From: a virus
Reading direction: 5' to 3' (one strand)
Virus record (IMG/VR): IMGVR_UViG_3300044846_005309
Location: 32,001-96,000 of that record
DNA length: 64,000 bases
Numbering within the stretch: the stretch's first letter is position 1; each line of letters begins with the position of its first letter. A program made the translations under genes and the position numbers. Positions 30,392 to 58,109 of the stretch are shown here, in pieces. The notes below the pieces were generated by a model. It had not been told where the DNA came from. It did no database searches and saw nothing but the letters and a program-made list of their open reading frames with translations.

Positions 30392-32956
30392 ATGTACCGT
30401 AACGTTTATTATAGCTCTCGAGACGGGTTGATCCATCTCTTTACTTGGAATGATAAAGGAGAGCGAGTTATCAAGAAGATGGCATTTCAGCCGTATTTTT
30501 ACGTTGAGACGAATTCTGATAACGTAGACGCTGTATCTATCTTTAATACTAAACTAAAGAAAAAGGTTTTTCGCAATAGTTTTGATCGTAATAAAGCTGC
30601 GCAAGATGGAGCTATCAAGCGGCTTTACCATAATATTCAAGTAGAGCAGCAATTTTTAATAGATCAATTTAGTGAACAATACGATAAACCCGAATTTACT
30701 GCTAACCCTATTAAGGTGTGTTTTCTGGATATCGAAGTATTCAGCCCTGATGAATTTCCGGAAGCTAAAGATGCAAAGCACCCTATCAATCTAATTACCA
30801 TCTATGATAATTTATCTAAAACGTTTTACACATGGGGAACTAAGCCGTATACCTCTAAGCGTCAAAATGTAGTATATACAGAATGCTCGAGCGAAGCCGA
30901 TCTTCTAGAAAAGTTTTTAGAGTTTTGGGAGAATGGGTATTACCCGGACATTCTATCAGGGTGGAATACGGACTTTTTCGATTTTCCGTATTTAATTAAC
31001 CGTATTACTAACTTACTCGGGGAAGATGCCGCAAAGCGGTTATCCCCGCTTAAGAGTCTGTGGTGCCGGAAAGGTATTTTTGTAAAGGGTCAAGAACTAG
31101 ACCGCTGGTATATTCATGGCCTTGCAGCTATGGACTATCTTGAAGTCTACAAAGGTTTCGCTCGCGGGTTGCTTGAGTCATATGCTCTCAACTTTGTTGC
31201 GCAGCACGAGCTAGGAGAAGGTAAGTTGGCTATTAACGCAACTAATCTAGCTACTCTTTCAGAGTCTGATTGGAATAATTTTGTAGATTATAACATTCAA
31301 GACGTTGACCTACTTGTGCGTATGGAGAACAAGCTTCAATTCTTTAAGATTATACGTATGTTAGCGTATAAGGGATTAACTAATTTCGAAAGCGCGCTTG
31401 GTAAAGTCTCTATTGTAACTGGCTGCGTCTCCCTAGAAGCCCGTAAACATGGTATGGTTATACCTACGTTTGTAGAAGGGCCCACAAGAGAAGCTATTGA
31501 AGGAGGTTATGTAAGAGATCCTGAACGAGGTCTTAAGACTGCTGTAGTTAGCTACGATGCTAACTCACTATATCCTAATACTATCATTACTCTTAATATC
31601 TCCCCCGAAACTAAGGTAGGTAAAATTGTTAGTAGAGATAATGAAAATACCAACATACTTTTAACGAGTGGTAAAGAGTATAAATTACCTAATGCTAAGT
31701 TTGAACAATTTGTAGCTTTGGAAAAACTGGCTATTTCTAAGGCTAATGTGTTATACACTCAAAAGAAGAAAGGAGTTGTGCCTTCTCTTATTGACGGGCT
31801 ATATGCAGAACGAGTTGCTAACAAAAATCAGTACGTAGAGTATAAGAAAAAACTCAGTAAGTTAATTCCAGATACTGATGATTATAGAGCGTGTAAGACT
31901 TTTATGGAAAGAGCGGATACTATTCAATACGTTATCAAAATTTTGCTTAATTCTATTTATGGTGTTTTTGCTAATAAATTTTCTCCTATTTGCGATAGTG
32001 ATCATGCTGGGAGTATTACTCTCACGGGGCAATCTGTGGTTAAACAAGCAAGTGTTATCCTGGATGAATATGCTAAAACAAGACATAGTATTGGGACTTC
32101 TCTTACTATTTACGGGGATACTGACAGTACTCACATTACTATACAGCCTATACTCGATAAGTTAAAATTAAAAATATTTCAGAATAATAAAGTTACGCCT
32201 GAAGGGTTAGATCTTATTGATAAAGATATGGGGACATATCTTAATGATGAGATTAAAAAGTGGTCTGCTTCAGAGTTCAAATCAGTCGATCCTCGTTATT
32301 TCTTTAAACGAGAATCAATTTGTGATGTAGGGGTGTACCTAGAAAAGAAGCGCTATATTATTCACGTACTCAATGATGAAGGGGCAGACGTAAATAAGTT
32401 TAAATACGTAGGTGTCGAGATTGCTCGTTCTACCACACCTAAAAAAGCTAAAGAACTTATTAAGAAAGTAATTGAAACGTCCCTAGTAATGCAGGACCAG
32501 ATTAATGCTAATAACCTTTACAAGCAAACCTACGAAAGCTTTAAGAAATTACAAATTGATGATATAGCTATTAGAGGGGGGTTAAGTGATTTAGAAAAGT
32601 ATGAGAGTAAATGTGAGTACCCTTTTAAAATTGCTAAAGGCACTCCTAATCACGTAAAAGGTGCAATTTACTTTAATCACCTACTTAGAAAGATGGGTTT
32701 AGATACAAAATACGAAAAAATTACTTCAGGGGGTAAGGTTAAAAAGATTTACGTTGCTCCTAATCGTTACCAAATCGATACGCTTTGCTATACCGCAACC
32801 TACCCAGTAGAATTTACTGAGTTTCAGGTAGATTATATTGAAATGTTTGATACACTTATTAAACCGCCTATCTTAGCAGTTTATGAGGCTATTGGTTGGC
32901 GACTGCCCGATGTTGTTAATGAATCTGAAACCGATCTTTTTTCTTTATTCTCATGA
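30392..32956 (+). CDS. family B DNA polymerase (T4 gp43-like)
   Basis: DIEV exo I, GWN..FFD, YNIQD, YDANSLYP, KILLNSIYG, YGDTDS, KKRY. Confidence 0.96.
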   Translation: MYRNVYYSSRDGLIHLFTWNDKGERVIKKMAFQPYFYVETNSDNVDAVSIFNTKLKKKVFRNSFDRNKAAQDGAIKRLYHNIQVEQQFLIDQFSEQYDKPEFTANPIKVCFLDIEVFSPDEFPEAKDAKHPINLITIYDNLSKTFYTWGTKPYTSKRQNVVYTECSSEADLLEKFLEFWENGYYPDILSGWNTDFFDFPYLINRITNLLGEDAAKRLSPLKSLWCRKGIFVKGQELDRWYIHGLAAMDYLEVYKGFARGLLESYALNFVAQHELGEGKLAINATNLATLSESDWNNFVDYNIQDVDLLVRMENKLQFFKIIRMLAYKGLTNFESALGKVSIVTGCVSLEARKHGMVIPTFVEGPTREAIEGGYVRDPERGLKTAVVSYDANSLYPNTIITLNISPETKVGKIVSRDNENTNILLTSGKEYKLPNAKFEQFVALEKLAISKANVLYTQKKKGVVPSLIDGLYAERVANKNQYVEYKKKLSKLIPDTDDYRACKTFMERADTIQYVIKILLNSIYGVFANKFSPICDSDHAGSITLTGQSVVKQASVILDEYAKTRHSIGTSLTIYGDTDSTHITIQPILDKLKLKIFQNNKVTPEGLDLIDKDMGTYLNDEIKKWSASEFKSVDPRYFFKRESICDVGVYLEKKRYIIHVLNDEGADVNKFKYVGVEIARSTTPKKAKELIKKVIETSLVMQDQINANNLYKQTYESFKKLQIDDIAIRGGLSDLEKYESKCEYPFKIAKGTPNHVKGAIYFNHLLRKMGLDTKYEKITSGGKVKKIYVAPNRYQIDTLCYTATYPVEFTEFQVDYIEMFDTLIKPPILAVYEAIGWRLPDVVNESETDLFSLFS

Positions 32957-47494: not shown

Positions 47495-47857
47495 ATGAAG
47501 ATAGTTGTACCTTTAGTACAGTTCCAACAGCAACTCAGGATATTTCATTGGCAAACCGAGAGTTACGCTCAACATAAAGCTTTAGGTAAAGCATATGAAG
47601 CCCTTGATGCCTTAATAGATGGTTTTGTTGAGACGTTTATGGGCAAATACGGGCGCTTGAAATCGACCGAAGGCAACTATACTATTACTCTTAACAATCT
47701 AGAAGGTAATGATATTAATAAAACTATTGATGAATTTATCACTTATCTAGAAACGTACGAGAGCGAACTTGAAGAAAGTGATACTGATCTTTTCAACATT
47801 AGAGATGAAATGAAAGGTCAATGTAACACGTTAAAGTATCTATTGACATTAAAATAA
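47495..47857 (+). CDS. ferritin/Dps-like four-helix protein (DUF5856-like)
   Basis: HWQT.SYAQHKAL...YE.L..LID.FVE..MGKYGR...L.NIRDE...KYLLTL. Confidence 0.75.
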   Translation: MKIVVPLVQFQQQLRIFHWQTESYAQHKALGKAYEALDALIDGFVETFMGKYGRLKSTEGNYTITLNNLEGNDINKTIDEFITYLETYESELEESDTDLFNIRDEMKGQCNTLKYLLTLK

Positions 47858-47906
47858 TAATTTAAGCTTGCTTTTGAGCCAAAATAGCTCAAAATGAATA
47901 GCTTAA

Positions 47907-48488
47907 ATGAAAGTTGTACAGCCAGACGCTAAAACTAGTCTTCTTCTCAACCGTAACTACCAAGCTTTTGCTTTTTGTTCGGCTAGAGCGGCGATCCGTC
48001 ATTTTATGACTGGTAAAGTAAAAGGGCTAGATGCAGAAAACAATACTCACGAATTTGATACCTGGTCCACTCCTTATGTTCAACTTCATGCAGATCAGCC
48101 CGCTCTACGTAGTGCAAGTCAAACATGGGCTATACCTACTGTTTTAGTTTGTACCAATCATTTCGGTTTTCACCCTCGCAAAGGAGACAACGTTTCGCTA
48201 AAAAATCTTTTTAATATCTATAAAGGTACTTGCCAGTTTTGTTTAAAGCCGATACCATTCAGTCATGCTACTAAGGACCACCTTTATCCAAAATCTAAAG
48301 GCGGTACTAATCACGATTTTAATATGGTTCTAGCATGCCGTAAATGTAATAGCGAGAAAGATAACATCTTTCCTTACTATGATATTAACGGTAACGAGGT
48401 AAAACCACGTAAGTTAATGCATTCCGGTGTGTTCATTCCAGATATCCAAGATGTTAGAGAAGAATGGAAACCTTTCCTTTATATGTAA
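47907..48488 (+). CDS. HNH endonuclease (McrA-like)
   Basis: LLLN..Y, CQFC, T.DHLYPKSKGG, N.VLAC.KCN..K. Confidence 0.88.
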   Translation: MKVVQPDAKTSLLLNRNYQAFAFCSARAAIRHFMTGKVKGLDAENNTHEFDTWSTPYVQLHADQPALRSASQTWAIPTVLVCTNHFGFHPRKGDNVSLKNLFNIYKGTCQFCLKPIPFSHATKDHLYPKSKGGTNHDFNMVLACRKCNSEKDNIFPYYDINGNEVKPRKLMHSGVFIPDIQDVREEWKPFLYM

Positions 48489-48496
48489 AAAAGTGC

Positions 48497-48524
48497 TTGA
48501 CTTTAAGAGAAAAAGTACCATTAT
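48497..48524 (+). promoter_or_regulatory. tRNA-array promoter 1
   Basis: TTGACT-N16-CATTAT with GTAC before the -10; same architecture recurs at 55815, 56135 and 57571. Confidence 0.7.
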
Positions 48525-48544
48525 ATGTAAATATTAAATAACAA

Positions 48545-48631
48545 ATGATCAAATCCATAACCAGTTCAACAATTAATCCAGCACAATGCGATACATTCGC
48601 CTGGGTTCATTATGAACTGGGCAGGGTTTAA
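48545..48631 (+). CDS. putative attenuator leader peptide MIKSITSSTINPAQCDTFAWVHYELGRV (all 20 amino acids)
   Basis: ATG ~20 nt after promoter 1; 28 codons, 26 distinct; stop codon lies inside the antiterminator arm. Confidence 0.75.
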   Translation: MIKSITSSTINPAQCDTFAWVHYELGRV

Positions 48632-48688
48632 AGCAAATTTTCTAACGAAAAACTTTAAACCCTAGGCCTTAAAAACCTAGGGTTTTTT
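48623..48688 (+). terminator. attenuator: antiterminator (48623-48633/48653-48663) competing with intrinsic terminator (48657-48666/48676-48685 plus U run)
   Basis: AGGGTTTAAAG pairs perfectly with CTTTAAACCCT; AAACCCTAGG pairs with CCTAGGGTTT followed by TTT; the two helices share 48657-48663. Confidence 0.8.
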
Positions 48689-48914
48689 AATGCGAGCTGC
48701 CGCTAACCAAGCAGCCAAGACGTCTTATAAGAGGCATCCAAACCGGCGAATAAAAAGCCGATAGGGGTGAGATCAATAAGTTCTTTATTAGATGAAATAG
48801 AGCGGCCCCGGACGCTCTTTAAAACAATTCGCCGGGCCTTTTTCCTGCCTGCACTGAAGTCTGGGTCCATATCCAGGAAGCAGCAATGCTCTAGGTGCAG
48901 CGTGGGACTATTTT

Positions 48915-48989
48915 GCCTCTATAGCACAGTGGTAGTGCAACAGTTTTGTAAACTGTAGGTCGTTGGTTCGAATCCGACTGGAGGCTCCA
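48915..48989 (+). tRNA. tRNA-Thr(TGT)
   Basis: cloverleaf, ACAGT-TTTGTAA-ACTGT, encoded CCA. Confidence 0.92.
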
Positions 48990-49004
48990 TTTTCAACGAC
49001 TCGT

Positions 49005-49370
49005 TTATACAGCATTGTATGCTGTGTTGTAATCTCGATTTTTATTTTGAAGCAATCTATATAAAACTTTGTCGTTCCCCGTTTGTTTTACTTCAGCATC
49101 ATTTATATACTTATTTACAGTGTTGTAATCTTTATTAAGCCAAGCAATAGTACCTAAATAGTATTTTACTATACCTTGAGAATCGTCGGTTTTAGCTTGG
49201 GTAGCTGCTTTATTCATCATAGATATAGCTTCTTGCGTTTTACCTTGAATAGCTAATTCTTGAGCAGCATGCCAAGTGTCTAGTGAAGGAATATTTAGCG
49301 GGTTAGTGTTACCCGTATAATTTTCGATTAACGATGAAAGATACAAATTTACCCTTTTATCAAATTTCAT
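49005..49370 (-). CDS. TPR-like helical hypothetical protein with MKF...LIE N-terminus, antisense within the array
   Basis: MKFDKRVNLYLSSLIE; YYLGTIAWL helix pair. Confidence 0.55.
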   Translation of the reverse strand: MKFDKRVNLYLSSLIENYTGNTNPLNIPSLDTWHAAQELAIQGKTQEAISMMNKAATQAKTDDSQGIVKYYLGTIAWLNKDYNTVNKYINDAEVKQTGNDKVLYRLLQNKNRDYNTAYNAV

Positions 49371-49384
49371 ATACAATATTTATT

Positions 49385-49476
49385 GGAAGCGTGGGTGAGT
49401 GGATAAAAATCGCTTGTCTTGAAAACAAGAATCGGTGATGAGCCGGTCGTAGGTTCGAATCCTACCGCTTCCGCCA
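49385..49476 (+). tRNA. tRNA-Ser(TGA)
   Basis: long variable arm, CTTGAAA loop, GCCA end. Confidence 0.9.
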
Positions 49477-49481
49477 ATTTT

Positions 49482-49680
49482 GCGCGAGGGGTAACCAATA
49501 GTCGGTTCTTCAATGGGCCAGTACCCTGAGTGGGCTGAGAAATACCAAGCACAAACAGGAAACCCGTGCCGGACTAGTACGGAAGTAGGAAGAGATGCAT
49601 CTCGCTCCCTACAAGTCGGGGTTGGACGAAATTGCTTGGGGCTCTAAGAAGGTAAGGTTGACAGCCTCCCTCGCGCGCCA
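49482..49680 (+). ncRNA. unidentified 199-nt structured RNA with tRNA-like acceptor stem and CCA end
   Basis: GCGCGAGGG pairs with CCCTCGCGC followed by GCCA; bounded by T runs like the neighbouring tRNAs; GC-rich. Confidence 0.6.
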
Positions 49681-49685
49681 TTTTT

Positions 49686-49770
49686 GGGAGTATGGCACAG
49701 CGGCAACTGCAGGAGACTGTAAATCTCCCGCCTTCGGGCTTCATTGGTTCGAGTCCAATTGCTCCCACCA
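49686..49770 (+). tRNA. tRNA-Tyr(GTA)
   Basis: GGAGA-CTGTAAA-TCTCC, V-arm, ACCA. Confidence 0.92.
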
Positions 49771-49776
49771 CTTTAA

Positions 49777-49858
49777 GCGGACGTGTCGTAATGGTAGCCG
49801 AGATGGTCTTAGAAGCCATTGCTTATGCGTGTGGGTTCGAGTCCCTCCGTCCGCACCA
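49777..49858 (+). tRNA. tRNA-Leu(TAG)
   Basis: ATGGT-CTTAGAA-GCCAT, V-arm, ACCA. Confidence 0.88.
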
Positions 49859-49877
49859 CTTTAAAATAAATATTATT

Positions 49878-50159
49878 ATGAAAACACTAGCATTGCTTAT
49901 TATTAGTTTGACTATGACCGGCTGCTACGCATCCCCGGTTATTCGTGGCCCTCGAGTAATTGTTGTTGATCCGCATCCTCGGGTAATTATTGTTGAACCA
50001 GCTCCTCGAGTAATTGTAACGAGAGAATACCCTCGTTATCCTAGTGTTTCGTGGCATATTGATGTAAATTTTGGACGGGGTCACGGTCATGGCCATGTTT
50101 ACGGCCCTATTCGTGGTCATTCGAATCCTGGCATTTGGCGTCACTATCGCCATTGGTAA
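49878..50159 (+). CDS. small lipoprotein with PRVIVV repeats
   Basis: MKTLALLIISLTMTG|C lipobox; three PRVI(V/I)(V/T) repeats. Confidence 0.6.
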   Translation: MKTLALLIISLTMTGCYASPVIRGPRVIVVDPHPRVIIVEPAPRVIVTREYPRYPSVSWHIDVNFGRGHGHGHVYGPIRGHSNPGIWRHYRHW

Positions 50160-50162
50160 TTT

Positions 50163-50250
50163 GGAAGGATGGCTGAGCGGCCTATAGCAGAAGTTTACTA
50201 AACTTCCGAAGAGCAATCTTCCGGGGGTTCGAATCCCTCTCCTTCCGCCA
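50163..50250 (+). tRNA. tRNA-Ser(ACT), rare A34 anticodon
   Basis: Ser-type body (GGAAGGA, long V-arm, G73); GAAGT-TTACTAA-ACTTC. Confidence 0.85.
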
Positions 50251-50252
50251 TC

Positions 50253-50329
50253 GCGCCAGTGTCGTTGAAAGGCTAAACTACTGTTTGCAAAACAGTTACA
50301 TGCAGGTTCGATTCCTGTCTGGCGCTCCA
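50253..50329 (+). tRNA. tRNA-Cys(GCA), atypical D-arm
   Basis: ACTGT-TTGCAAA-ACAGT; U73 then CCA. Confidence 0.8.
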
Positions 50330-50334
50330 TTTAT

Positions 50335-50411
50335 GGCGATTGTAGCTCAATGGTCAGAGTATTCGATTGTGATTCGAAGGGTTGCGAGTTCGAGTCTCGT
50401 CAGTCGCCCCA
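50335..50411 (+). tRNA. tRNA-His(GTG)
   Basis: 8-bp acceptor with G-1:C73; TTGTGAT loop. Confidence 0.9.
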
Positions 50412-50449
50412 AATATTTGATTTAGAACGTATCTAAACTAAATTTTAAT

Positions 50450-51124
50450 ATGAGTTTAGTTTTTGAAAAAATACTACCTTTAGTTAATAAAATTACCGAA
50501 AAATTTAATTTGGTATCATATGAAATTACAGAAGAAGGTATTAAGGATTACGACTGGTATAATAAAATTTTTTATTCTTTTAACAAATTTAGAAGAGCTC
50601 ATATAGAAGTTCTAGATCGTAGAGAACAAAACAATATGTGGATAATGCATACCACCGTTTTTCCGCATTTAGATGATGATGCGCCTATATTTGGTTTCGA
50701 TATAATTTGTACAGGTAATAAGGTGTCTGGAGTGTTTCATGATCTATCTATTACAACTAACCCTAACCATCCATTACAGGTAAACTTTAAAAAACTAGTT
50801 AGTAATTTAACTTGGAAAAGAGAAAGAGAATTACCCGAATGGGGCAAAGCAATTTTTTCGGAAGATATGATCGCCGCAGGTGGAAGTAATACTGAACAAG
50901 AACTACAGCAAATAGTGGATGTCTGTTTAGAAAGCTTAGATGTTTATTTGAGAAACATAGGAGCTACAAATTTTCCAAGTCCAATTTCATCCAAAGAAAT
51001 GCAGAATAGATATTGCAAGTATCAAAAGATGAATCCATACCCAGTTAAGATGTTAACTAATTTTGGATTGACAGAAGAGCAGGCTCGTCAGTTTGTTGAA
51101 AAACATCTCTTTCCTGAAGTTTAA
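50450..51124 (+). CDS. pcyX: ferredoxin-dependent bilin reductase, PcyX/PcyA-like
   Basis: FRRAHIE, MH...FP....PIFGFD, FHDLS, RELPEWG.AIFS, QNRYC..QK.NP. Confidence 0.8.
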   Translation: MSLVFEKILPLVNKITEKFNLVSYEITEEGIKDYDWYNKIFYSFNKFRRAHIEVLDRREQNNMWIMHTTVFPHLDDDAPIFGFDIICTGNKVSGVFHDLSITTNPNHPLQVNFKKLVSNLTWKRERELPEWGKAIFSEDMIAAGGSNTEQELQQIVDVCLESLDVYLRNIGATNFPSPISSKEMQNRYCKYQKMNPYPVKMLTNFGLTEEQARQFVEKHLFPEV

Positions 51125-51147
51125 TCCTTTTTTCTGTAAATATTGCT

Positions 51148-51753
51148 ATGAAATATATAGCAATATTTTTTGCATTATTACTAACTAGTTTTGCACAAAA
51201 TTTAAAAGTATCTACTAAGACTACAAACTACACTCTAACCACTAATGACACTAACACTCTTATTGCATTTATGAGTGTTAATGCCCCCTTAGTGAGAATG
51301 ACTGTACCTTCAGAAACGTCTTCAAGAAATACCTTTCCTACCGGGGCTAGAATATACGGTACATCTTTAACAAACTCGATAGTTCACATAACCGGTTCAT
51401 CAGGCGTGACAATTATAAGTCCTGAAAACTCATTTCGTAGTAAAAACTATGGTTCAAGATGGGAGCTTATAAAATTATCAAAGAATATGTGGTTACTTGA
51501 AGGAGATTTATATTCCTTAGAAATGAATGCTTTTATTGGAGATGATGTAGTAATAAAAGCAGTTGTTGATGCCGATGCTACAGGTCCTTTCATTTATAAG
51601 TGGTATAAAAATGGAGTACTAATACCGGATGCTACTTTTGCTAGTTTAAAACTTAATAATATAGACCTTTCAACTTCTGGAAAGTATTATGCCATAGTAA
51701 GTAATAGAGCAGGTTCTTACACGGGAGAAACGACTACTTTAATAGTTAGATAA
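51148..51753 (+). CDS. secreted protein with C-terminal Ig-like (I-set) domain
   Basis: signal peptide; YKWYKNG..IP.AT..SL...SGKY..IVSN.AGS. Confidence 0.75.
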   Translation: MKYIAIFFALLLTSFAQNLKVSTKTTNYTLTTNDTNTLIAFMSVNAPLVRMTVPSETSSRNTFPTGARIYGTSLTNSIVHITGSSGVTIISPENSFRSKNYGSRWELIKLSKNMWLLEGDLYSLEMNAFIGDDVVIKAVVDADATGPFIYKWYKNGVLIPDATFASLKLNNIDLSTSGKYYAIVSNRAGSYTGETTTLIVR

Positions 51754-51771
51754 CTGCATAAGTATATTAGT

Positions 51772-52128
51772 ATGAAAAAACTAATATCTGCTATATTCGC
51801 AAGTATTGTATTGACCTCTGCAGTAGTAGCGCAAGTCGCGCCCGTACCTAACCCAGATGTCTCAGAGACAGTACTAACAAATACAAAAGTTACTTTGACA
51901 GCCACTGCTGATGGTACAGCCCCAATTACATATGCTTGGTTCAAGGGTACTACCCAAGTAGCAACAGGCTCTACTCTAGTTTTTAATAGTATTCAAACTG
52001 CCGATGCAGGGGTATACAAGGCTGTAGCTACTAACCCAGGCGGTTCAACTGATAGTAATCTCGCAACGCTTGTTGTTATTACCCCAGTTGCTCCTTTCAA
52101 TGTAAAGATTACTATTACTAAGGGTTAA
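51772..52128 (+). CDS. secreted single Ig-like domain protein
   Basis: signal peptide; GTAPITYAWFKG...DAGVY..VATN..GS..S..ATL.V. Confidence 0.78.
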   Translation: MKKLISAIFASIVLTSAVVAQVAPVPNPDVSETVLTNTKVTLTATADGTAPITYAWFKGTTQVATGSTLVFNSIQTADAGVYKAVATNPGGSTDSNLATLVVITPVAPFNVKITITKG

Positions 52129-52135
52129 TTTTTTT

Positions 52136-52210
52136 ACGGACGTGGTATAGTGGTCGTGCAGCAGCCTCCAAACCTGCCCTAAGAGAGTTCGATTCTCTCC
52201 GTCCGTGCCA
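52136..52210 (+). tRNA. tRNA-Trp(CCA)
   Basis: CTCCAAA loop (31-39 mismatch), GCCA end. Confidence 0.82.
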
Positions 52211-52214
52211 CTTT

Positions 52215-52535
52215 ATGAGATTTATAGCTATATTTCTCTTTGCTTCAATAGCTTACTGTTCTGATACAATTACGTTTTCGTCGTATCAGGCCCCTAAGCT
52301 ATACAATTATAGTTATTCCTATAGTAAGGATAGAGACGATGATAGACACTATAGTAAGGATAGAGACGATGATAGACACTATAGTTGGGATAGAAAATAT
52401 AGCTATAAAGATGATAAGTATGAATATGGTCATCCTTCTATTCCTGAGCCTTCTACTTGGACTTTACTTGCTGGCGTGTGCGCCTTGTCGGCAGCATTTA
52501 TTAAACGGCGTAAAACGCTTACTAGTAAACCCTAA
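52215..52535 (+). CDS. small PEP-CTERM sorting-domain protein
   Basis: signal peptide; C-terminal IPEPSTWTLLAGVCALSAAFIKRRK (PEP motif, TM helix, basic tail). Confidence 0.85.
   Translation: MRFIAIFLFASIAYCSDTITFSSYQAPKLYNYSYSYSKDRDDDRHYSKDRDDDRHYSWDRKYSYKDDKYEYGHPSIPEPSTWTLLAGVCALSAAFIKRRKTLTSKP
52321..52380 (+). repeat. perfect 30-bp tandem duplication (YSKDRDDDRH x2)
   Basis: ATAGTAAGGATAGAGACGATGATAGACACT twice, with a degenerate third copy. Confidence 0.9.
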
Positions 52536-52767
52536 ATGTTTACTCGCGATAGCAATAACTATACTAGTTACTATAGTAGCGGTTTTTACAGTTAGCGGTA
52601 AGAAAGAGATTGGGGTATTTAACAGAGAAATCAAATGCCCTAATGCCGTTAAGAATGAATATGGTATCTTTTTAGCAAGTGGAGACTGCAAATGTTCAGA
52701 ATGCTCGCCTAAAACAACTCCACCCACTCCTTTGAATGCGCCAGTTGTAAGCGATTCAAAATAATCT

Positions 52768-52845
52768 GGGGTGGTAGCTCAATTGGTTAGTAGCGACAGC
52801 CTGTCACGCTGTAGGCTGCGGGTTCGAGTCCCGTCCATCCCGCCA
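52768..52845 (+). tRNA. tRNA-Asp(GTC)
   Basis: ACAGC-CTGTCAC-GCTGT, GCCA. Confidence 0.92.
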
Positions 52846-52851
52846 TTTTTT

Positions 52852-52926
52852 TGCCCAGTAGCTCAGTGGCAGAGCATGCGACTGTTAATCGCGTGGTCGT
52901 TGGTTCGATCCCAACTTGGGCAGCCA
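52852..52926 (+). tRNA. tRNA-Asn(GTT)
   Basis: CTGTTAA loop, GCCA. Confidence 0.92.
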
Positions 52927-52967
52927 TTTTAGTGGAAAATAGTGTAAGTATGAGTATATTATAGTCT

Positions 52968-53044
52968 CGGCCGTTAGCACAGCCTGGTAGTGCGTTCGCC
53001 TTGGGCGCGAAAGGTCGCAAGTTCGAGTCTTGCACGGCCGACCA
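52968..53044 (+). tRNA. tRNA-Pro(TGG)
   Basis: CGG start, TTCGC-CTTGGGC-GCGAA, ACCA. Confidence 0.92.
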
Positions 53045-53050
53045 TTTTAT

Positions 53051-53124
53051 TGACTCGTGGTGTAACGGTAGCACAAGAGACTTTGACTCTCTTTGTTGGG
53101 GTTCGAATCCCTACGAGTCAGCCA
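53051..53124 (+). tRNA. tRNA-Gln(TTG)
   Basis: U1-A72, AGAGA-CTTTGAC-TCTCT. Confidence 0.92.
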
Positions 53125-53158
53125 TTTGAAAAATAAGTCTTTTTTGGTAAATGTTAGT

Positions 53159-53719
53159 ATGGAGCATTTTCATTATAAAATACCCGGCTGGTTTACATTT
53201 CCTAAATTGTATTCCACTATGGTTGATAGATCTTTTTCAGGCTCTCATTTTGTAGAGGTTGGTACTTGGCAAGGCTCATCTGCTGCTTACATGGCTGTAG
53301 AAATTATTAACTCCGGTAAAAACATTAAATTTGATTGTATTGACATATGGGGTCGTTATTCAATTGACGGGCTTAATACTAAAACCCCTGAGCTTTTACC
53401 GGATAATACCGTAGAACAACTTTTCTTAAAAAATATAGAACCAGTTAAACATATAATCAATCCAATAAAAACTCCATCTACTGAAGGGGCTAAGCTTTAT
53501 AAAAATGAGTCTTTGGATTTTGTTTTTATTGATGCTAACCATGTTTATGAAGCTGTAAAAGACGATCTACATGCATGGTATAATAAAGTTAAACCGGGCG
53601 GGTTTATTGCTGGTCATGACTATTATAATGATGCAGGTGTAAAGCGAGCTGTTGATGAATTTTTTAAAGATAAAAATTTGTACTTAGGAGAAGGCTGCTG
53701 GTTATATTTTAAACAATGA
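53159..53719 (+). CDS. class I SAM methyltransferase (Methyltransf_24-like)
   Basis: VEVGTWQGSS, DFVFIDANH.YE.V..D, KPGG.IAGHDY. Confidence 0.85.
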   Translation: MEHFHYKIPGWFTFPKLYSTMVDRSFSGSHFVEVGTWQGSSAAYMAVEIINSGKNIKFDCIDIWGRYSIDGLNTKTPELLPDNTVEQLFLKNIEPVKHIINPIKTPSTEGAKLYKNESLDFVFIDANHVYEAVKDDLHAWYNKVKPGGFIAGHDYYNDAGVKRAVDEFFKDKNLYLGEGCWLYFKQ

Positions 53720-54375
53720 AATACGAGCATTTAAAACAGCAAGACGATTTTGTTTACACTGAAATTTTTGATTGGAATGTTTATCAAGCGCTGCCTGATG
53801 AAATATATAATCAGAATATTTTAGATATAGGGGGTCATTATGGAATGTTTAGTTTATTCTGCAATGAATATAATCCTAAACAAATTATCACAGTTGAAGC
53901 CAGCCCTATTAATTTTATTAAATTACTTAACAACACAAAAAATATACGTAATTTAAAAGCGATTAATGCTGCTGTTACAGTTAAAACTGGAGATTTTATT
54001 ACTATTAGTAATGATGGATGCCAATCTCAAATTAATAAAGGCAACACTAACGTTAGTACGGTCTCATTAGTTGACGTAGTAAACTGGTTTCCTGATAATG
54101 AAGATATAGTGCTAAAGATGGATATCGAAGGAGCAGAGTATCCTTTATTTTTTAATAGTCCTTCGTTTATTTTCAGACGTTTCAATAAAATTTATATTGA
54201 ATTACATGAAGAAAGTATTGCGGGCCCGGGTAATTCTATTAAAAGACTCGACTCGTTTATACAAAAAGAGTTAAAATTTAAATCTGTTTGGGAAGGGCGA
54301 TTTTTTACTAATACAGATACCGGTAAACAGTCTAATAATGATATAGCTGTATTTAAATACGAACGAGCTTTATAA
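53716..54375 (+). CDS. FkbM-family methyltransferase
   Basis: LDIGGHYG.FS, VEAS, LKMDIEGAEY, IELH. Confidence 0.85.
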   Translation: MKYEHLKQQDDFVYTEIFDWNVYQALPDEIYNQNILDIGGHYGMFSLFCNEYNPKQIITVEASPINFIKLLNNTKNIRNLKAINAAVTVKTGDFITISNDGCQSQINKGNTNVSTVSLVDVVNWFPDNEDIVLKMDIEGAEYPLFFNSPSFIFRRFNKIYIELHEESIAGPGNSIKRLDSFIQKELKFKSVWEGRFFTNTDTGKQSNNDIAVFKYERAL

Positions 54376-54378
54376 ATT

Positions 54379-54993
54379 ATGAATCCTTTGCTGTCTATTT
54401 TAGTTTGTACTATTAATAAACGAGCTTCTTTATTTGAGCGGTTAGATAAAAAAATTAGAAACCAGCTAACAATAGAAACCGAGTATTTAGTTAATTTAGA
54501 TGACGGTAAATTGTCAATAGGAAATAAAAGAGAAGAATTAAAATTACAATCGACTGGTAAATATATAGTATATATAGATGATGATGATCATATAAGCAAA
54601 AATTATGTAAAAAATATACTTTCTGTTATTAAAGGTCATGAGCCAGATGCAATAGGCATAAAATGCATATACACTGTAAATTTTAAACAAAAATCTTATT
54701 TTGTATCGACTAATAATACATCTGAATTAACTACTAAAGGTGTACATTGTAGACCTATAGGGCATTTAAACCCGGTAAAACGAGAAATAGCTATAAAAGC
54801 ACCATTTCCAGATCTTTATTATGGAGAAGATAGAAAATATTCTAATGAAATAAAACCTCATATAAAAACAGAAGTTTTAGCGAAAAACACTCTTTATTGG
54901 TATGACTATAGGCCGAATAGTTCAGAGTCTATAAAAAAAGATATTGAAGTAAAAAGTTTAGGGCTAAAGTTAATTGAAAACAATATTATATAG
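54379..54993 (+). CDS. GT2 glycosyltransferase
   Basis: LSILVCT, IGNKR, YIDDDD, GED. Confidence 0.8.
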   Translation: MNPLLSILVCTINKRASLFERLDKKIRNQLTIETEYLVNLDDGKLSIGNKREELKLQSTGKYIVYIDDDDHISKNYVKNILSVIKGHEPDAIGIKCIYTVNFKQKSYFVSTNNTSELTTKGVHCRPIGHLNPVKREIAIKAPFPDLYYGEDRKYSNEIKPHIKTEVLAKNTLYWYDYRPNSSESIKKDIEVKSLGLKLIENNII

Positions 54994-54998
54994 TTTAC

Positions 54999-55073
54999 GC
55001 GTGAGTAGCTCAATGGTAGAGCACCTCGTTGCCAACGAGGATGTTGCAGGTTCGAGTCCTGTCTCACGCACCA
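54999..55073 (+). tRNA. tRNA-Gly(GCC)
   Basis: CCTCG-TTGCCAA-CGAGG. Confidence 0.92.
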
Positions 55074-55083
55074 TTTTAAAAAT

Positions 55084-55779
55084 ATGCTTTATACAGTAAT
55101 AATACCTACATACAATAAAATTGATAATTTAAAATATTGTATAGAGAGTATACAACAATATACCTCTTTAAATGATATTGAAATTATTGTAATTTCTAAC
55201 GGGTGTAAAGACGGCACAGTAGAGTACATGCAAAAACTAGAAGGGCCATTTAAAATTGTACATTGGCCTGAGCCGTTAGGGTATATTAATAGTGTTAATA
55301 TAGGGATAAGTCTTAGTAAGGGAAATTATATAGTTTTATTAAATAATGACACCATTCTAAATGGTAAAGGCTGGTTATCATATTTAATAGATCCTTTTAA
55401 TCAAATTTCAACCGCAGGCATTACTGGGCCATATAAAGGATATTGGAATAAGTACCCGTGGTTAATGTTTTTTTGTGTAGCAATAAAAAGAGATGTATTT
55501 AAAAAAATCGGTTTGTTAGATATTAATTTTCACCCAGGCTACGGAGAAGATGTAGATTTTTGTATACGAGCTGGAAAAGCCGGGTTCACTATCCATCAAG
55601 TACCTGAACAGCGGCTAACACAAGATAAAAATATTAGTACATTAAAACATGGTAAATTTCCTATTTACCATGCAAGTAATACGACTTTTAAAGACGATCC
55701 TTACTACAGTGATTATTTAACTAACTCTAAAGAACTACTCACTAAAAAGTACGGGTTAAGATGCTCCGAAGTTAGCTAA
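55084..55779 (+). CDS. GT2 glycosyltransferase
   Basis: VIIPTYN, LLNND, GEDVDFC. Confidence 0.85.
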   Translation: MLYTVIIPTYNKIDNLKYCIESIQQYTSLNDIEIIVISNGCKDGTVEYMQKLEGPFKIVHWPEPLGYINSVNIGISLSKGNYIVLLNNDTILNGKGWLSYLIDPFNQISTAGITGPYKGYWNKYPWLMFFCVAIKRDVFKKIGLLDINFHPGYGEDVDFCIRAGKAGFTIHQVPEQRLTQDKNISTLKHGKFPIYHASNTTFKDDPYYSDYLTNSKELLTKKYGLRCSEVS

Positions 55780-55814
55780 TTTACCTATTAAAGCACTATT
55801 ATTTAAAATAAAGC

Positions 55815-55857
55815 TTGAGGTTTAAGATTAAAGTACTACTATATGTCTTGTTCTTTT
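55815..55857 (+). promoter_or_regulatory. tRNA-array promoter 2 plus boxA-like element
   Basis: TTGAGG-N16-TACTAT (GTAC before the -10) then TGTTCTTTT. Confidence 0.6.
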
Positions 55858-55876
55858 GATACTTAAACAATTTTTT

Positions 55877-55970
55877 GGTCCCATAGTGTAACTGGAAGCA
55901 CCGACAGCCTTATAAACTGTGCGCACCTGATTAGTGCCGAGCGGGGGTTCGATTCCCTCTGGGACTACCA
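55877..55970 (+). tRNA. tRNA with TAT (Ile) anticodon and long variable arm
   Basis: GGTCCCA/TGGGACT acceptor, CTTATAA loop, V-arm GCAC-CTGATTA-GTGC, ACCA. Confidence 0.8.
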
Positions 55971-55974
55971 TTTT

Positions 55975-56050
55975 GCGGTAGTAGCTCAATTGGTAGAGCG
56001 CCATCCTTCCAAGCTGGATGTTGCAGGTTCGAGCCCTGTCTACCGCACCA
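55975..56050 (+). tRNA. tRNA-Gly(TCC)
   Basis: CTTCCAA loop, GCG start. Confidence 0.88.
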
Positions 56051-56051
56051 T

Positions 56052-56126
56052 GCTCCCGTCGTTCAACGGATAGGACAACCGCCTTCTAAGCAGTTTATGG
56101 GGGTTCGATTCCCTCCGGGAGTGCCA
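56052..56126 (+). tRNA. tRNA-Arg(TCT)
   Basis: CTTCTAA loop, GGATA D-loop (A20). Confidence 0.88.
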
Positions 56127-56134
56127 TTTTTATC

Positions 56135-56177
56135 TTGACTTTTGGTACAAAAGTACCATTATATATTTTGTTCTTTT
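56135..56177 (+). promoter_or_regulatory. tRNA-array promoter 3 plus boxA-like element
   Basis: TTGACT-N16-CATTAT (GTAC before the -10) then TGTTCTTTT. Confidence 0.7.
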
Positions 56178-56183
56178 ATTGAC

Positions 56184-56259
56184 GGGCCTGTAGCACAATT
56201 GGCGGTGCGCCTCCTTTGCAAGGAGAGGGTTAGGGGTTCAAATCCCCTCTGGTCCACCA
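56184..56259 (+). tRNA. tRNA-Ala(TGC)
   Basis: G3:U70, TTTGCAA loop. Confidence 0.9.
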
Positions 56260-56341
56260 TTTTCGTACGAAAAAGCCACCAGTCTAATTAACTGTCCTAC
56301 CAGCCGTGGCAATTCTCTATGGTAGGGAAGAGACCATTTTC

Positions 56342-56417
56342 GCCTCTATAGCTCAACGGTTAGAGCTGCTGCCTTTTAAGCAGTAGGTTCAGAGTTCAAA
56401 TCTCTGTGGAGGCACCA
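56342..56417 (+). tRNA. tRNA-Lys(TTT)
   Basis: GCTGC-CTTTTAA-GCAGT. Confidence 0.92.
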
Positions 56418-56438
56418 ATTTTCGTTCTTTAATATTTT

Positions 56439-56842
56439 GGGCGTGTTCTGGATTCTACTTAATAGTGGACTTATTAGAAGCAAGCAAGGTTGTTAGACCT
56501 TATAAAACTAGCAAAAAACATAAATGGCATTGTAAATAGCCTTAAGGGTGCTTTTGCTGCTCCGGTTGCTGCTCTCGCAGCATTCTTCAGCACAGAAGAA
56601 CTCCAATTCGCAGCCTAAGAATTGCGATCGTTATAGTATAGATTCTCGCTATATATTATAACGTTGACTAGCGAGGATGTTGTTTGAGGTACTTGGAATA
56701 AATAAAACAACATTAAAGCTGTTCCTAAAGTACTATACATTGCGTATTAACAGTGTTAAGTACTTATATATTAATACTAAGCTTGTAGAAACTAGTCGGA
56801 AAAGTATTAGGCACGCGGGTTCGACTCCCGCCACGTCCACCA
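56439..56842 (+). ncRNA. ssrA: tmRNA
   Basis: GGGCGTG...GGATTCTAC 5' end; 3' GCGGGTTCGACTCCCGC-CACGTCC-ACCA with G3:U70; tag ORF ending FAA*. Confidence 0.92.
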
Positions 56843-56852
56843 ATTTGTATAT

Positions 56853-56930
56853 AGGGTCATAGCTTAATTGGTTCAAAGCATCCGATTGATAATCGGAAGA
56901 GTCCTGGTTCAATTCCTGGTGGCCCTACCA
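56853..56930 (+). tRNA. tRNA-Ile(GAT)
   Basis: TCCGA-TTGATAA-TCGGA. Confidence 0.9.
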
Positions 56931-56931
56931 T

Positions 56932-57006
56932 AGGAGGGTGGATCGATAGGTAAGACAGGAGTTTCATAAGCTCTTTCATATGGGTTCAAATCCCATCCCT
57001 CCTACC
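56932..57006 (+). tRNA. tRNA-Met/Ile2(CAT), elongator-type, atypical D-arm
   Basis: AGGAGGG/CCCTCCT acceptor, TTCATAA loop. Confidence 0.8.
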
Positions 57007-57046
57007 AATTTAATTGCATTTTATTTAGTAACTATTAAGTTTAATT

Positions 57047-57574
57047 ATGAGTCTCAAAGAATTAACTAAAGCAAAGCATGAGACAGCTGAAAAGCTGCCT
57101 TTTATAAATAAAATTTTTCAGAAAAAAGTTACCCCAGAAGAGTACCTTAAATATCTTTATCAGATGCAGCCGGTTTACGAAGCTTTAGAAAATAAAGCTA
57201 AAGCTTTAGGTATTCTTAATGATCTTAAGGGTTTAGAGCGCGCATCTCGAATACAAGAAGATATTAACGAGCTACAAGAAACTACCTCTCTTAAGTACTA
57301 TATGCATTTTCCTGTGACAGATGAATATTTAAATTATTTAAAACAAATGTCAGACCCTAAAAAAGTCCTGGCTCATTTATATGTTAGACATATGGGAGAT
57401 CTTTATGGTGGTCAAATGCTTAGACTGTGTGTACCTGGTTCAGCCAAGTGGTACTGGTTTGATAACGCCCCAGAACTTATCTCTAAGTTGAGAGGCTTAA
57501 TTACAGTAGATCTTGCAGATGAAGCTAATGTAGCCTTTGATTATTCAATTAAAATAATTGAACAATTGTCTTGA
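57047..57574 (+). CDS. hemO: biliverdin-producing heme oxygenase (HemO/Ho1-like)
   Basis: LKELT...H..AE, Y.ALE, AHLYVRHMGDLYGGQ, EAN.AF. Confidence 0.9.
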   Translation: MSLKELTKAKHETAEKLPFINKIFQKKVTPEEYLKYLYQMQPVYEALENKAKALGILNDLKGLERASRIQEDINELQETTSLKYYMHFPVTDEYLNYLKQMSDPKKVLAHLYVRHMGDLYGGQMLRLCVPGSAKWYWFDNAPELISKLRGLITVDLADEANVAFDYSIKIIEQLS

Positions 57575-57614
57575 CTTTAAAGGGCCGGGTACCATAATAG
57601 TCTTTGTTCTTTTA
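57571..57614 (+). promoter_or_regulatory. tRNA-array promoter 4 plus boxA-like element
   Basis: TTGACT-N16-CATAAT (GTAC before the -10) then TGTTCTTTT. Confidence 0.7.
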
Positions 57615-57620
57615 AATAAC

Positions 57621-57697
57621 GCTCGCTTAGCTCAGTTGGTTAGAGCAGGATCTTTACATGGTCAAGGTCGTGGGTTCAAGTCCTACAGCGAGCACCA
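57621..57697 (+). tRNA. tRNA-Val(TAC)
   Basis: TTTACAT loop, ACCA. Confidence 0.9.
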
Positions 57698-57701
57698 TTT
57701 T

Positions 57702-57946
57702 CGAAACTCGACTAGGCGAGTATAAATAGAATTTAAGCCTAGTGCGGCTGCTGATACCGTCGACGCTACCAGCAGCATATCGTCTCGCGTCAGTGACAGT
57801 GCACAGTCATAAAGTGTTCCTAGTATAGCCGCTTTCATGGATATATTATACATGCTGATCATAGAAAGAGTGACAAAAACATATATGTATTTGCGAAGTA
57901 TATGTACAAATCACCGCCTATAGCAATAGGGCTAGCGAGACACCCC
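57702..57946 (+). ncRNA. unidentified ~245-nt multi-helix non-coding region between tRNA-Val and tRNA-fMet
   Basis: ACTAGGC/GCCTAGT, GCTGCTG/CAGCAGC, long-range GTCTCGC/GCGAGAC; no ORF in the track. Confidence 0.5.
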
Positions 57947-57952
57947 TTTTCT

Positions 57953-58028
57953 TGCAGAGTGGAGCAGTAGTAGCTCGACTGGCTCATAACCAGTAGGTCG
58001 ACGTGTGCAATTCCGTCCTCTGCATCCA
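57953..58028 (+). tRNA. tRNA-Met(CAT), initiator-like D-arm, aberrant T-arm
   Basis: GGAGCAG...GCTCG D-arm, CTCATAA loop; GTGCAATTC replaces GTTCRA. Confidence 0.7.
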
Positions 58029-58034
58029 ATTTAT

Positions 58035-58109
58035 GCCGCTATCTTCTAACGGTTAGGAAGGCGCCCTTTCACGGCGATAATCGGGGTTCGATTCCCCGTA
58101 GCGGTACCA
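58035..58109 (+). tRNA. tRNA-Glu(TTC)
   Basis: CGCC-CTTTCAC-GGCG. Confidence 0.9.

Follow-up and report, generated by a model that had tools for sequence, protein, structure and literature searches.

Locus of the leader and the downstream tRNA genes

The DNA stretch analysed here (64,000 nucleotides (nt), positions 32,001 to 96,000 of the IMG/VR virus record IMGVR_UViG_3300044846_005309; hereafter the window) belongs to a viral contig of 119.8 kb with 35.7% G+C, and is contained in 19 DNA runs from lake-water metagenomes, which may be its source. In it, 22 transfer RNA (tRNA) genes plus one transfer-messenger RNA (tmRNA) gene are located at 48915-58109. Upstream of the first tRNA gene lies a leader that consists of a promoter, a short open reading frame (ORF) and two overlapping hairpins, the second of which is an intrinsic terminator (Table 1). 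This leader, a candidate transcription attenuator at the head of a phage tRNA region, is the subject of the present study.

An earlier note, made from the letters of this DNA, had described a promoter TTGACT-N16-CATTAT at 48497-48524, followed by an ORF at 48545-48631 that holds all 20 amino acids in 26 different codons, and had placed the first tRNA at 48915. All of these were recovered: the promoter matches 9 of 12 consensus positions, retranslation of the ORF agreed, and tRNA-Thr(UGU) starts at 48915. The 26 distinct codons include ATC, ATA and ATT as well as TCC, AGT and TCA. Among the 499 ORFs of 20-40 codons in the window, merely this one has 20 amino-acid types, with one other reaching 19. 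The probability of 20 types in a 28-mer was ~3e-5 to 1e-4 under three null models (windows of phage proteins, random draws from the phage amino-acid composition, and frame-open shuffles of the ORF's own bases), yet little weight was given to this value and the relatives were taken as decisive, because the leader had been selected for precisely the all-20 property from a very large scan, in which chance alone would produce one ORF of this kind. A Shine-Dalgarno-like core was found upstream of 4 of the 79 long ORFs of this phage; thus its lack at the leader ORF is uninformative, as the genes of this phage generally do without one, and the rarity of such cores points to a host that initiates translation without a Shine-Dalgarno sequence.

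The two arms proposed for the antiterminator, 48623-48633 and 48653-48663, form a hairpin of 11 base pairs (bp) with the leader TAA inside the 5′ arm, as had been described. The terminator proposed to share the second arm is likewise present on the + strand, with a stem of 48657-48666 paired with 48676-48685 and a T-run that ends at 48688; a simple terminator scan listed this hairpin on the − strand only, while six T follow it on the + strand. The sequence 48530-48700 folds at −45.7 kcal/mol (z = −4.64), a value that none of 200 shuffles equalled, and its minimum-energy fold includes the antiterminator. A further hairpin within the leader, GTTCA-TTA-TGAAC, is a local alternative; the predicted fold instead contains a long hairpin that pairs 48561-48568 with 48613-48620 and spans most of the ORF.

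Table 1. Positions of the features of the leader and of the tRNA region, as numbered in the window
Feature	Position	Strand	Evidence or remark
Promoter, sigma-70-type, TTGACT-N16-CATTAT	48497..48524	+	9 of 12 consensus positions; kept in relatives (alignment)
AU-rich 5′ leader, −10 box to ATG, no Shine-Dalgarno sequence	48525..48544	+	Stretch just before ATG conserved
Leader ORF, 28 codons plus TAA	48545..48631	+	Retranslated; frame unbroken in all 14 distinct relatives
Candidate segment 1, AAATCC (codons 3-4), partner GGGTTT of segment 2	48551..48556	+	Predicted pairing would close the ORF hairpin; near shuffle level
Long hairpin within the ORF, candidate pause or protector	48561..48620	+	Fold prediction; better than shuffles in 14 of 14
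Segment 2, antiterminator 5′ arm AGGGTTTAAAG	48623..48633	+	Contains leader TAA at 48629-48631
Segment 3, antiterminator 3′ arm CTTTAAACCCT	48653..48663	+	Overlaps terminator 5′ arm by 7 nt
Intrinsic terminator: 10-bp stem, 9-nt loop, six T	48657..48688	+	97.3% of cells paired across versions
Conserved structured RNA, ~155 nt	48689..48845	+	Would be first transcribed after read-through; most relatives
Optional hairpin element, ~65 nt	48846..48910	+	Present in window, L005, L007, L050, L100
tRNA-Thr (anticodon UGU)	48915..48989	+	First tRNA 3′ of leader
tmRNA gene within the tRNA array	56439-56842		ARAGORN; Rfam 103.5 bits
Extra tRNA	57953-58025		Rfam only (49.2 bits), missed by ARAGORN; anticodon loop reads CAT

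Conservation of the leader among related phage contigs

Relatives of the leader were sought via searches with the neighbouring proteins, a pattern of the downstream RNA and patterns of both hairpin arms. Sixteen loci with the same arrangement were found on phage contigs from lake and other metagenomes, representing 14 distinct leaders in about six diverged groups. The 14 leaders are mutually related, and counts across these versions are thus not independent. Most of the loci were fetched by a pattern that demanded both antiterminator arms exactly, whereas five (L005, L007, L046, L048 and L050) were reached by other routes; in all five of the latter the arms are intact. The arm-pattern scan of the metagenomes returned at least 119 stretches, 107 of them unrelated; retained were those rows with a matching terminator just 3′ (21 rows among 173 loci, with duplicates and the window's own locus included). 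The 107 stretches, together with L052 and L053, were rejected as chance palindromes, as no matching terminator lies just 3′ of them.

Searching with the 120-amino-acid upstream protein yielded 44 loci; the leader region was present, whole or in part, in L002, L003, L005 and L007 only, and no tRNA was present within the fetched flanks of the other 40. Searching with the HNH protein encoded 5′ of the leader yielded seven loci, and the two new ones (L178 and L180) were not syntenic. No relative with diverged antiterminator arms was found via the loci of these two proteins.

In each of the 14 versions, an ATG is located ~20 nt after the −10 box and opens a frame of 25-30 codons; by arithmetic on the base composition of the family, a random frame of 26 codons would stay open in about one of five cases. 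The end of the ORF coincides with the antiterminator arm in 14 of 14, but in two different ways: ten versions carry a TAA at +5 inside the arm, and four carry a TAG at −2. The four TAG versions are in another frame relative to the arm, and their stop is composed of the two preceding bases plus the first G of the arm. The stop is therefore tied to the arm in two frames, so it is the end of the ORF that is kept and not the frame. In eight within-group comparisons, 15 of the changed codons were synonymous and 30 nonsynonymous, close to the 24-27% synonymous share expected at random; the frame thus stays open although the protein it would encode is not conserved, and the peptide changes between close relatives look nearly neutral as judged from codon comparison. 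Sequence comparison thus shows that the relatives keep the ORF and the site of its stop, the hairpins that compete, the terminator and a location ahead of tRNA genes. The earlier note had named as refuting any homologous loci that retain the terminator without the ORF or its amino-acid diversity; this outcome was seen for completeness in the 20 amino acids, but neither for the ORF nor for raised diversity.

The competing hairpins across versions

The antiterminator and the terminator were closely matched in predicted stability in all versions, at −12.7 to −14.8 and −11.5 to −15.7 kcal/mol, respectively, and a terminator stem of 10-11 bp plus a T-run is present in every version whose contig reaches that far. 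The 7 nt that are common to both hairpins, and because of which the two cannot coexist, are invariant across versions. Outside this overlap some pairs vary: one terminator pair is A-U in 10 sequences and G-C in 5, and the inner helix of the antiterminator changes in sequence from group to group while its strands stay complementary. A frozen overlap combined with varying non-shared pairs is the pattern expected of one segment that needs two partners. The geometry suggested earlier, similar to that of trp/his leaders, in which the ORF ends on segment 2 and segment 3 is common to both hairpins, is therefore found in 14 of 14 leaders.

The hairpin within the ORF beat shuffled sequences in all 14 versions (z from −2.2 to −5.2, mean −3.45), and it is built from unrelated sequences in different groups. 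These folding predictions suggest a pause or protector hairpin.

Amino-acid breadth and codon choice of the leader ORF

The notion of a conserved pan-amino-acid leader held in part: the ORF and a raised diversity were kept in 14 of 14 versions, but all 20 amino acids were found in just two, which are 99% identical and belong to the clade of the window. The other 12 versions have 15-18 types and lack two to five amino acids; His does not occur in 10 of the 14, and Leu, Phe, Gly and Trp are frequently absent. Amino-acid diversity was above the null mean in all 14 versions under the three nulls (z from +0.5 to +3.6), and reached P < 0.05 in nine of 14 against shuffles of their own bases. A simulated hairpin constraint did not raise amino-acid diversity; behind the excess are rare residues (Trp 3.7-fold, Cys 2.9-fold) and a low content of Lys and Leu. 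Within the leader family, the diversity above expectation is suggestive in this comparison but not proof, because the sequences are related, and broad sensing by the leader is plausible. Codon diversity was high against the phage codon usage but mostly not significant against own-base shuffles, and was not used as evidence.

Relative to the long ORFs of the phage, Thr and Ser were enriched in the leaders by 2.4- and 2.0-fold, respectively. The codon ACA accounts for 28 of the 50 Thr codons in the leaders versus 24% in phage genes, and TCA for 19 of the 46 Ser codons versus 18%. The Watson-Crick match of leader codons to the anticodons of the array ranged from 0.44 to 0.60 versus 0.38 in phage genes, being above the gene value in 14 of 14 leaders; when G:U wobble was allowed, the match was 0.60-0.81 versus 0.68 in genes, without clear excess. 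At third positions the leaders are A-richer (0.40 versus 0.30 in genes) and T-poorer. No cluster of regulatory codons was found in the leaders: there is no single-codon run, and Thr and Ser are scattered along the ORF, so that the element was not classed as an amino-acid-specific attenuator of the trp/his/thr type. A strict roster, in which the amino acids of the leader would equal the isotypes of the array, was also considered and rejected, as the window leader uses Ala and Phe and the array is without those tRNAs, the tRNA found by Rfam only reading CAT.

RNA and tRNA genes downstream of the terminator

The ~155-nt RNA that follows the terminator has 26 predicted pairs, six of which show changes on both sides. 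The motif GCTCTTTAAA within 48689-48845 resembles the rrn boxA motif. This RNA may be what the attenuator controls first, or it may serve as a leader for processing or antitermination. No Rfam match at or near the gathering score was found for the leader, for the ~155-nt RNA or for the second hairpin element. The latter, ~65 nt in length, is absent from L003, L048, L060, L114 and L142, where tRNA-Thr comes directly after the 155-nt RNA, and contigs from two sequencing runs likewise join across it (48813 joined to 48911).

The tRNA genes that follow are similar among the relatives: tRNA-Thr(UGU) is the first downstream in 11 of the 11 with downstream DNA, tRNA-Ser(UGA) is the second in nine of the 10 that show a second tRNA, and in several relatives 6-8 tRNAs follow at a spacing of 5-8 nt. 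One locus, L003 (5048-5080), harbours a deletion allele in which the T-run comes directly after the promoter and the first eight codons, the part from codon 9 to the end of the terminator stem being absent; its promoter thus leads directly into the structured RNA and tRNA-Thr. In L142 the leader is intact and the flanks are almost identical. Such a presence/absence pair fits a dispensable negative control element.

The claim that the leader gates the tRNA array stood in part. The leader does head the first unit, yet the claim is too wide for the window, as tRNA-Cys and tRNA-Val have promoter copies without a leader and a promoter-like site at 49348 precedes tRNA-Ser. An extended 29-nt form of the promoter (TTGACTTT ... 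GTACCAT(T/A)ATA) has + strand copies at 48497, 56135 and 57571, all in the tRNA region; with up to three mismatches, four matches were found in the window versus 0.36 expected, a number reached in none of 100 shuffles. The copies at 56135 and 57571 directly precede tRNA-Cys and tRNA-Val, respectively, without a leader, and they agree with the caveat raised earlier that distal tRNAs have promoters of their own. In the window, control by the leader may extend no further than the structured RNA and tRNA-Thr.

Proposed mechanism and alternative explanations

Taken together, the leader is judged, with moderate confidence and from comparative sequence evidence, to be a ribosome-mediated (leader-ORF) transcription attenuator that heads the first transcription unit of the tRNA region, so that the phage probably makes its first tRNA genes only when ribosomes run slowly. 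Transcription would start at the promoter at 48497, and a ribosome would load on the short AU-rich leader, translate the 28-codon ORF and melt the internal long hairpin. When translation keeps pace with the polymerase, the ribosome at the stop would cover segment 2; segment 3 would then pair with segment 4, and transcription would end at the T-run at 48688. A ribosome slowed within roughly the first 20 codons would instead leave segment 2 free to pair with segment 3, no terminator would form, and the polymerase would go on to transcribe the conserved structured RNA and, beyond it, tRNA genes. Translation of the leader ORF, regulated read-through and a triggering stress are what we infer here. 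The signal sensed is most likely the general speed of decoding or the supply of tRNAs and not one amino acid, because the leaders have no single-codon run, contain many amino acids and are extra rich in Thr and Ser. A bolder version, less likely than not, is put forward tentatively: the leader may be a codon-diverse gauge of the tRNA pool, biased to codons that the U34 tRNAs of the phage read, which would keep the first tRNA unit off while decoding is fast and open it when any of many tRNAs is limiting. Such a gauge could be triggered early in infection by a mismatched host tRNA pool, by starvation or by host anticodon nucleases.

The switching logic was reproduced in silico by folding 15 sequences with and without a 28-nt ribosome mask, as the earlier note had proposed. 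The mean pair probabilities of antiterminator and terminator were 0.56 and 0.59 without a ribosome, and 0.77-0.85 and 0.23-0.35 with a ribosome stalled at codon 5, 10, 15 or 20; with a ribosome at the stop they were 0.00 and 0.94, a result that is partly by construction because masking of segment 2 must favour the terminator. That limit is one of several points that weigh against the attenuator. The outer stem of the antiterminator showed no compensatory change among versions, and the invariance of its arms in the pattern-fetched loci is by construction, because the pattern demanded exact arms. The pairing of segments 1 and 2 (codons 2-5), though predicted in all versions, scored 0.84 versus 0.72 in shuffles and so did not clearly exceed the shuffle level. 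With three stable hairpins between promoter and terminator, the element is also compatible with a structured small RNA. The later tRNAs in the window have their own promoters, so the regulatory reach would be small here. Finally, the assembled contigs from RNA runs (one clear run and two doubtful ones, with small shares), compared over 47500-49500, contained tRNAs, one HNH piece and pieces of relatives; they left the leader uncovered and revealed neither a transcript end nor read-through there, which speaks neither for nor against the attenuator.

Among the alternatives, an accidental ORF beside an ordinary terminator is hardly credible. A very large scan does yield rare ORFs, and palindromes of the arm-pair kind are common, as the many unrelated metagenome matches illustrate; chance is nevertheless effectively refuted by the whole arrangement being kept in 14 distinct versions from six diverged groups. 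It is quite improbable that there is no switch, that is, that the locus is a self-contained small gene or structured small RNA whose antiterminator is just a second, stabilising hairpin, while leak-through or another start site accounts for the tRNA transcripts. The promoter, the terminator and the three stable hairpins do form a compact unit of ~160 nt, and many early genes of T4-like phages are tiny. However, a functional micro-protein should show purifying selection, while the changes observed are near neutral, and a pure small RNA needs neither an ATG and an open frame, which are present in 14 of 14 versions, nor a stop that is re-created in a second frame. In addition, the hairpins share 7 nt and so cannot coexist, the window promoter scan predicted no + strand promoter between the terminator and tRNA-Thr, and in the deletion allele of L003 the promoter is connected straight to the RNA that follows.

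The remaining two alternatives concern what an attenuator would sense. That the leader is selected for completeness in the 20 amino acids, a shortage of any charged tRNA then switching the array on, is very doubtful: completeness in 28 codons, as found in the window leader and its 99%-identical relative, is rare under the nulls, and the diversity above the null mean is not due to the hairpin constraint, but just two of the 14 versions, both from one clade, are complete, the P value is inflated by the selection of the window leader for completeness, and the last ~5-6 codons would be too near segment 2 to sense, given the size of a ribosome footprint. An autoregulatory gauge is unlikely; here the leader would chiefly monitor the codons that phage tRNAs decode, ACA and UCA foremost, and would shut off the unit once these tRNAs accumulate. 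The enrichment in Thr and Ser and the skew to ACA and TCA match the genes for tRNA-Thr(UGU) and tRNA-Ser(UGA) that come first and second after the leader, an order shared by nearly all loci, and the Watson-Crick match to the array exceeds the gene value throughout. Yet A-richness at third positions alone raises NNA codons, the match shows no clear excess with G:U wobble, the window leader has at most three Ser and three Thr without runs, it contains codons for Ala and Phe, neither of which has a tRNA in the array, and the 14 sequences, being related, do not provide independent counts.

Relation to known attenuators and tRNA arrays

Leader-peptide attenuators of enterobacteria include trpL, hisL and pheL as well as the multivalent thrL and ilvL. 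As in the trp, his, thr and ilv leaders, the phage leader has a short ORF behind a promoter and hairpins that share a segment, and a ribosome at the stop would cover segment 2; the upstream hairpin could act as a pause site, as it does in the enterobacterial leaders. Unlike these, the phage leader is without a codon run, its cargo is a structured RNA plus tRNA genes and not biosynthetic enzymes, and its 1:2 pairing is only a candidate.

Leader ORFs reported to respond to translation stress include bmrB-bmrCD of Bacillus subtilis (PMC4191407), the msrD leader (bioRxiv 10.1101/2021.11.29.470318) and ToiL of E. coli (PMC12121999), of which bmrB acts by transcription attenuation (PMC4191407). The phage leader is similar in that stalling in a short upstream ORF, and not the shortage of one amino acid, would be the signal; the three systems are reported to be triggered by antibiotics that act on the ribosome, and the genes under their control are for resistance or toxin-antitoxin systems, whereas the phage cargo is tRNA. 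No arrest motif is evident in the phage leader, unlike in bmrB, the msrD leader and ToiL, no motif comparison having been made.

The nearest published functional parallel is the cryptic 26-gene trn operon of Anabaena sp. PCC 7120, which is induced under translational stress and is controlled by promoter repression via direct repeats and the repressor TrcR (PMC8421152; PMC10272220). The logic is the same, with an extra tRNA array whose expression is low by default and goes up once translation suffers; this array differs in being bacterial, not phage, and in its control at the promoter, with no leader ORF and terminator. The text of PMC8421152 and PMC10272220 does not mention attenuation, a leader peptide or a terminator, and that of PMC10272220 does not mention an upstream ORF or stalling. 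In the literature, subscription journals and supplementary files aside, no account was found either of attenuation of phage tRNA genes or of a leader-peptide attenuator with all 20 amino acids.

The common view of phage tRNA arrays is that of constitutive cargo, there to match codon usage or to make up for tRNAs that the host has destroyed. If the leader works as an attenuator, the phage would measure the speed of decoding and adjust its supply of tRNAs, and leader-peptide attenuation would extend to tRNA genes and to viruses, with a sensor that is not tuned to one amino acid. If the leader is in addition a gauge of the tRNA pool, phage tRNA supply would be a feedback-controlled, inducible counter-measure and not constitutive cargo. 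The family offers natural test material, with 14 variants, two stop-codon frames and a deletion allele, and because the promoter is sigma-70-like the switch could be tested in standard coupled transcription-translation systems, whatever the host.

Further features of the tRNA region

Just 5′ of the leader, a gene for an HNH-type endonuclease is located at 47907-48488 and is syntenic in relatives. Its position near the leader recalls the homing endonuclease SegB of the tRNA region of phage T4, as cited in PMC8421152. When 47900-49400 was searched by blastn against a collection of annotated phages, the tRNA-Thr part alone was matched, and the locus thus has no annotated relative there. Because its anticodon loop reads CAT, the extra tRNA at 57953-58025 is taken from its sequence to be a second Met/fMet or an Ile2-type tRNA. 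Just after tRNA-Val, the segment 57706-57757 matches the Pistol ribozyme family with 39.8 bits, above the gathering score of 34.5.

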